A DNA stretch of 64,000 bases from Dictyostelium discoideum (lineage: Eukaryota): positions 4,448,001-4,512,000 of the forward strand of contig CM000153.2 of the NCBI GenBank assembly GCA_000004695.1. The letters are read 5' to 3'. Under the pieces are notes generated by a model that had not been told where the DNA came from, made no database searches, and saw only the letters and a program-made list of their open reading frames with translations. Shown here one piece after another: positions 23,018 through 23,130 of this stretch (the first letter of the stretch is position 1; each line of letters begins with the position of its first letter). The translations under genes and the position numbers were made by a program.

Positions 23018-23130
23018 TTTTTATATTTTATATGATTTTGTGTATTTTTTAGTGCTCTATTTTTTTATACTAAATTCATATTAAAAACAAATAAAATTAA
23101 ATCATTGTTTAAAAAAAATAAAATAATTAA
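23018..23130 (+). promoter_or_regulatory. Conserved ~110-bp intergenic element, copy 1. The second copy is at 55972..56085, and both sit about 280-300 bp upstream of a minus-strand gene start.
   Basis: …ttgtgtattttttagtgctctatttttttatactaaattcatattaaaaacaaataaaattaaatcattg… versus …ttgtgtattttgagttattctttttttatatactaaattcatattaaaaataaaacttaatcattg…. This conservation is far above background for AT-rich intergenic DNA. Confidence 0.4.

Follow-up and report, generated by a model that had tools for sequence, protein, structure and literature searches.

Why do two intergenic regions of a single Dictyostelium discoideum chromosome, separated by 33 kb, carry, in the same orientation, versions of one sequence of about 110 bp? 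The original prediction, made on the 64,000-nt stretch analysed here (the window), offered a shared cis-regulatory module, a small non-coding RNA gene or a short interspersed repeat. The last of these holds up, on account of copies on another chromosome and of presence/absence differences in close relatives; the small RNA gene does not, there being no fold, Rfam match or DUSE motif to go with it. The reading favored here, at a probability of about 0.62, is that the two copies, A and B, are members of a family of short non-coding interspersed repeats, probably the relic of a non-autonomous mobile element, which as sampled is confined to the D. discoideum complex.

The two similar stretches, initially delimited as 23018-23130 and 55972-56085, are real, and both are on the plus strand. 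The identical runs quoted for them reappear in the pairwise alignment, including an exact 22-mer, TATACTAAATTCATATTAAAAA. By blastn, with the low-complexity filter off, A and B share 81% identity over some 117 columns and score 92 bits; the next-best match in the window reaches 58.7 bits for A (in a poly-A stretch) and 47.6 bits for B, such matches being mostly A- or T-rich and of low complexity. With homopolymers and simple repeats masked the pair still scores 77 bits, and is then the top match in the window outside the paralogous gene cluster at 32-51 kb and the internal repeat of the SR-rich gene. When the AT-rich DNA of the window was simulated 40 times with a fourth-order Markov model, the maxima lay between 45.7 and 66.2 bits, and since the A-B score is higher than all of them the similarity is above chance. 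Searching with a profile widens A by a 5′ block, TGGTTACATTCA, that is common to copies elsewhere, and sets B at slightly different limits (Table 1).

Table 1. Copies of the repeat in the window, the genes beside them and the state of the corresponding sites in other genomes; positions are those of the window unless a locus (L number) is named.
Feature	Position	Strand	Basis or state
Copy A of repeat	23000..23125	+	nhmmer, 6-copy profile, E 2.3e-25; alignment to B; orthologue in D. cf. discoideum L008 9616-9724
Copy B of repeat	55969..56081	+	nhmmer, 6-copy profile, E 2.3e-16; orthologue in D. cf. discoideum L006 9612-9734
Candidate C, degenerate, inverted partial copy with TTAAATTCATATTAAAAG	22856..22934	-	unconfirmed; not significant alone
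Hypothetical gene beside A (506 aa)	ATG 22715	-	
PWI/SR-rich gene beside A	ATG 23382, then short intron	+	PWI-type N-terminus, RS-rich body
Prefoldin subunit 3 gene beside B	ATG 55699	-	
Locus A in relatives			present, D. cf. discoideum L008 (86%); replaced, D. cf. discoideum L007; undetectable, D. citrinum, D. firmibasis
Locus B in relatives			present, D. cf. discoideum L006 (88%); degraded, D. cf. discoideum L005; undetectable, D. citrinum, D. dimigraforme, D. firmibasis

A third candidate in the window, C, is found left of A, some 70 nt (66 nt) away, and has an 18-mer core with two mismatches. It is below significance, with an nhmmer E of 1.9 for the profile built on four copies and no listing at E ≤ 5 for the one built on six.

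Repeats of other kinds are present in the same window. Two segments in the paralogous cluster (43398-47297 and 47364-51250) form a tandem duplication of ~3.9 kb that is 88-95% identical, with further copies at 32282-32739, 34907-35778 and 40051-41276. The cluster encodes LRR/EGF-rich membrane proteins, its 589- and 597-aa ORFs being nearly identical, and orthologous loci of other species have similar flanking genes tagged LRR_ComC or EGF_TEN. There is also a 229-nt inverted repeat (38599-38827 and 39085-39313) with arms 94-96% complementary and 257 nt between them, a 55-nt stretch that recurs inverted and 100% identical 1.3 kb away (30790-30844 and 32097-32151), and a perfect 32-nt palindrome in AT-rich DNA at 16110-16141.

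Copy A is inside a divergent intergenic region of 667 bp; copy B has the 3′ end (~56360) of a minus-strand gene on one side and the start of the gene for prefoldin subunit 3 on the other. The distances to the minus-strand start codons were correctly given as 303 bp for A (23018-22715) and 273 bp for B (55972-55699). The naming of the second gene is borne out as well: its product shares a 90% cluster with PFD3_DICDI, and its best separate relative, at 92%, is from D. firmibasis. Directly 3′ of B, after a T-run, is a relatively GC-rich island (56118-56190, acaaccttgtggtagtaattttgcgggcaatt...) that is partly conserved in both genomes assigned to D. cf. discoideum. It has no Rfam match, and the only ORF overlapping it is a low-complexity frame of 53 codons with a GTG start (56128-56289); it could belong to the upstream minus-strand gene, within its 3′ UTR, or else be an unannotated transcript.

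The repeat is non-coding, very AT-rich and ~125-140 nt long. Its approximate consensus, on the plus strand of the window, runs from TGGTTACATTCA through a T-run to ATATTTTATATCATTTTGTGTATTTTTGAGTGCTCTATTTTT(AT)ATACTAAATTCATATTAA, then AAATAAAACTAAATCATTGTT and an A-rich tail. Copy A has this order in full (5′ block, T-run, core, ...AAATCATTGTT, A-rich tail), and B is without most of the 5′ block. Block order is identical in all copies, which are alike up to common boundaries and have unrelated flanks. Identity between paralogous copies, from one locus to another, is 74-85%. An A-rich stretch follows right after ...AATCATTGTT in six clear copies, and a T-run takes its place in a probable further copy, E; with A-runs so frequent in this genome, the A-rich end is weak evidence of a tail. 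Terminal inverted matches reach 7-13 nt at best, consist of T-runs and are equalled in 19-238 of 300 shuffles. The longest direct repeats in the flanks are poly-A/T strings, not above shuffles in any copy but one, labelled A_cfZ, where a 13-nt repeat of poly-A type was matched in 0 of 300 shuffles; no clean empty site was seen, nor a target-site duplication of 2-3 bp at the copies. Apart from A_cfZ, then, neither terminal inverted repeats nor target-site duplications rise above shuffled controls, and no feature fixes the mechanism of transposition. No internal Pol III promoter, tRNA-like part or autonomous parent was found.

Unrelated sequence was sampled through the major actin protein, which has many genes, giving six loci and 127 kb from D. 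discoideum and D. cf. discoideum. A search profile made from only A, B and their two orthologues finds a third independent locus, D, upstream of an actin gene, both in D. cf. discoideum (L197 9548-9658, E 8.6e-13) and in D. discoideum (L192 8198-8298, E 9.6e-11), with background matches at E ≥ 0.1. The L192 sequence is that of D. discoideum, the product of its neighboring gene being identical to DDB_G0280727; it is on a contig of 6.43 Mb, and the prefoldin 3 gene is on another, of 5.58 Mb. A probable fourth copy, E, which is internally deleted, comes up at L193 6989-7069 with the refined six-copy profile (E 0.05). Two more D. discoideum loci, 21 kb each and 41 kb in total, are without a copy. 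At the edge of the D element there is a ~70-nt insertion in D. cf. discoideum (L197 9440-9535 against L192 8170-8200) that interrupts the 5′ ATTGTTACATTCA block and duplicates part of it, and shows continuing turnover by indels at that edge. A 19-mer core pattern also turned up in metagenome contigs (113 stretches) and in bacterial and archaeal genomes (68); these are chance seeds, none of which gave a full-length match by profile.

Copies with common boundaries thus sit between unrelated flanks at three or more unlinked loci (A, B, D and probable E), and closely related genomes differ in their presence or absence, as is expected of interspersed repeats. Outside the window, which is left out of the count because it was chosen for having two copies, the sampling gives one or two loci per ~148 kb. 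Naive extrapolation would put tens to several hundred copies in the 34-Mb genome, with very wide uncertainty, against the three or four loci known.

Comparison of orthologous sites took in both D. cf. discoideum genomes, D. citrinum and D. firmibasis for A; for B, at the prefoldin 3 locus, it covered D. firmibasis, two D. citrinum genomes, D. dimigraforme (which enters only here) and the two D. cf. discoideum genomes. At the degraded B site of L005 some 105 nt of the element are missing, about 25 nt resembling its center are left and both flanks can be aligned. Given that remnant, we infer a deletion and not an empty site that predates insertion. At L007 the segment orthologous to window 22897-23190, which holds A, has given way to a transposon, and at the A site of D. 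citrinum and D. firmibasis the intergenic region measures only ~290 bp in all and does not contain the element. At the B site of D. citrinum, D. dimigraforme and D. firmibasis there is nothing significant, though the proximal prefoldin promoter aligns well, and ~125 kb of DNA from these three species yielded no copy. Ranked by similarity scores of the neighboring protein the order is D. discoideum, D. cf. discoideum ACTFIY, D. cf. discoideum ACTFIZ, D. citrinum and D. firmibasis, and on this basis both copies predate the splits between D. discoideum and D. cf. discoideum and each was later lost once. The original prediction had named lack of conservation in related Dictyostelium species as the outcome that would tell against it, and such a lack is what is seen outside the immediate D. 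discoideum complex.

The replacement of A is an observation of some interest in itself. In that D. cf. discoideum genome (GCA_054859205.1) a DNA transposon of 3.56 kb (L007 6244-9807) sits exactly at the site of copy A. It has terminal inverted repeats of 65-77 bp that are 84-88% identical, and two genes, one of them for a transposase of DDE_Tnp_4 (PIF/Harbinger) type; neither the window nor any other locus compared contains it. No transposase of a D. discoideum DNA transposon resembles known transposases (PMC5633606), and a recognizable Harbinger-type element in a sister lineage is therefore worth recording. That the short repeat might be a miniature derivative of this transposon was considered and rejected, the only matches between the two being of low complexity, with no similarity to the 65-77-bp terminal repeats.

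Several explanations compete with membership of a repeat family. The element has a GC content of ~12% in a window that is extremely AT-rich as a whole, and DNA of this kind gives many spurious matches of 40-60 bits, so that chance similarity of low-complexity sequence has to be considered. It is nevertheless refuted as firmly as any reading here: A with B outscores not only the simulated maxima but every other intergenic match between loci in the window, and the four-copy profile finds new copies at E 1e-10 to 1e-13, well clear of its background. One-off local copying, by gene conversion or templated repair between the two intergenic regions and with no wider family, would suit their proximity and shared orientation on a single chromosome. 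The independent copies on a different chromosome-scale contig, in D. discoideum as in D. cf. discoideum, refute it, as the same event across chromosomes is implausible; moreover A is as close to the copy at the actin locus (85%) as it is to B (81%). Very little credence is left for it, and equally little for a small RNA gene in several copies (e.g. a class I-like RNA, a snoRNA or a miRNA precursor), which is largely refuted. An imperfect hairpin of 14 bp (UAUGRUUU(U)GUGUAU ... AUACUAAAUUCAUA), variable in its loop, is possible for both A and B on the plus strand, and one of its positions goes from A-U to G-U between them. Changes in the L008 and D copies, however, break the hairpin and do not compensate it. 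Minimum free energies are no better than those of dinucleotide shuffles (z of -0.36 and -0.19 on the plus strand, +1.41 and -0.24 on the minus strand), and RNAalifold on seven aligned copies predicts 0 pairs on either strand, with no structure supported by covariation. No Rfam family matches the window at gathering thresholds, and none overlaps the element even at E ≤ 10; at that relaxed level the two intergenic regions yield only two weak, spurious matches outside the element. The DUSE motif, [AT]CCCA[CT]AA, expected ~60 nt upstream of class I RNAs and snRNAs, matches the window three times (15235, 48715 and 51364), never within kilobases of A or B, and direct reading of the sequence finds no C/D or H/ACA boxes.

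More weight, while still unlikely, attaches to a functional cis-regulatory module, promoter or enhancer, of a set of genes, in which selection for binding of transcription factors would keep the copies similar whatever their origin. Every clear copy is in intergenic DNA that contains a promoter, 170-350 bp from a start codon. The same relative orientation of A and B, at their comparable distances from minus-strand start codons, is mild support; by our own estimate such a coincidence would come about by chance in ~5% of cases. Ungapped identity between orthologous copies (91% for A, 95% for B) is at the upper end of the values for their flanks (78-92%). Even so there is no clear excess of constraint on the element, which is about as conserved as what surrounds it. 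Nor is it retained at orthologous promoters: neither site has a detectable copy in D. citrinum or D. firmibasis, nor has the B site in D. dimigraforme, despite the well-aligned proximal promoters of prefoldin 3, and where the element is degraded (L005) or replaced (L007) the neighboring genes are intact. Orientation to the nearest gene is inconsistent, D pointing towards the downstream actin gene and B away from prefoldin 3. Elsewhere in the window the two most distinctive sub-motifs show no enrichment (7 were observed where 4.9 are expected, and 11 where 7.2 are), and only one of five sampled actin loci has the element. A bolder proposal combines the two ideas: an undescribed family of short non-autonomous retroposons, the first in Dictyostelium not to target tRNA genes, would have spread into promoters after the D. 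citrinum split, with some copies (those at prefoldin 3, the PWI/SR gene and actin) co-opted as lineage-specific promoter modules. It is speculative, and we would put it no higher than the plain regulatory module.

The repeat-family reading, for which the third locus, the patchy distribution and the shared block order between unrelated flanks all count, invites comparison with known mobile elements. SINEs and other short non-autonomous retroposons are A-tailed copies, truncated at the 5′ end, that the machinery of a LINE produces. The element recalls them in its ~130 nt without coding sequence, its unlinked sites, 5′-short copy B, restriction to one lineage and decay, and, as a weaker point, in the A-rich 3′ end of its clear copies. 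Unlike SINEs it has no tRNA-, 7SL- or 5S-like head, no convincing A and B boxes and no demonstrable target-site duplications; ARAGORN and Rfam find no such head or Pol III promoter in or near the copies, and GGTTACATTCA agrees with the B-box consensus at 8 of 11 positions, with TTGTTAC or TGTTGAC in its place in the D copies. In size, AT-richness, position near genes and absence of coding capacity it resembles MITEs, such as Tourist, which derives from PIF/Harbinger, a parallel to which the DDE_Tnp_4 transposon occupying the place of A adds; it differs from them in having no terminal inverted repeats beyond T-runs.

Among elements of D. discoideum itself, TRE5-A has as its C-module a short AT-rich regulatory module at the 3′ terminus, followed by an A-tail. 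The C-module is bound by CbfA, and TRE5-A integrates ~50 bp upstream of tRNA genes (PMC5633606). The likeness of the repeat to this module is one of description only, and a difference is the lack of tRNA genes near its copies: a tRNA scan finds none in the 64-kb window or at loci L006, L008, L192, L193 and L197, and no copy is at the ~15-150 bp from a tRNA gene that marks TRE5, TRE3 and DGLT-A. TRE5 and TRE3 are the only known LINE-like elements of D. discoideum, and they insert beside tRNA genes (PMC5633606). Another comparison, again by description only, is with thug-S, a multicopy non-coding repeat of intergenic DNA (PMC6161686, PMC5633606). The thug elements count as DNA transposons, and miRNA hairpins form at thug-S loci (PMC6161686); the present repeat is likewise multicopy and non-coding, and is without terminal inverted repeats or a hairpin. 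The mobile elements described for the species are the Tdd, DDT and thug DNA transposons, TRE5/TRE3, DGLT-A, Skipper and DIRS-1 (PMC5633606). Neither that account nor PMC6161686 mentions a SINE- or MITE-like family of ~130 bp; descriptions of Dictyostelium MITEs or SINEs were not found, and a k-mer search of the literature with sub-sequences of the element gave no relevant match. Judging by descriptions, the repeat is an ordinary kind of feature, possibly uncatalogued in D. discoideum, and it may yet match the end of a catalogued element.

As to how the family arose, it would have spread by transposition in the ancestor common to the D. discoideum complex, once D. citrinum had split off, or else early enough for older copies to have decayed past detection. 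The element is presumably non-autonomous, since it has no coding capacity. The A-rich 3′ end of the clear copies, together with the missing 5′ block of B, suggests retroposition with 5′ truncation, whether of a SINE-like element or of a 3′-end fragment, which would fit without being proven. The copies now appear inert, drifting roughly like the promoter DNA around them, and any effect on neighboring genes would be incidental, through the addition of AT-rich promoter sequence, and not the cause of the similarity.

The result opens no major question. It does carry a caution, that paired 'conserved' blocks of intergenic sequence should not be equated with regulatory elements or RNA genes before copy number and orthologous sites have been checked. 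The D. discoideum genome is compact and gene-dense. The mobile elements catalogued for it either target tRNA genes or accumulate at centromeres (PMC5633606). To these a short non-coding repeat that occupies ordinary promoter regions, at a distance from tRNA genes, would be a small addition, and as sister genomes have it intact, degraded or overwritten it could mark recent genome dynamics in the D. discoideum complex.
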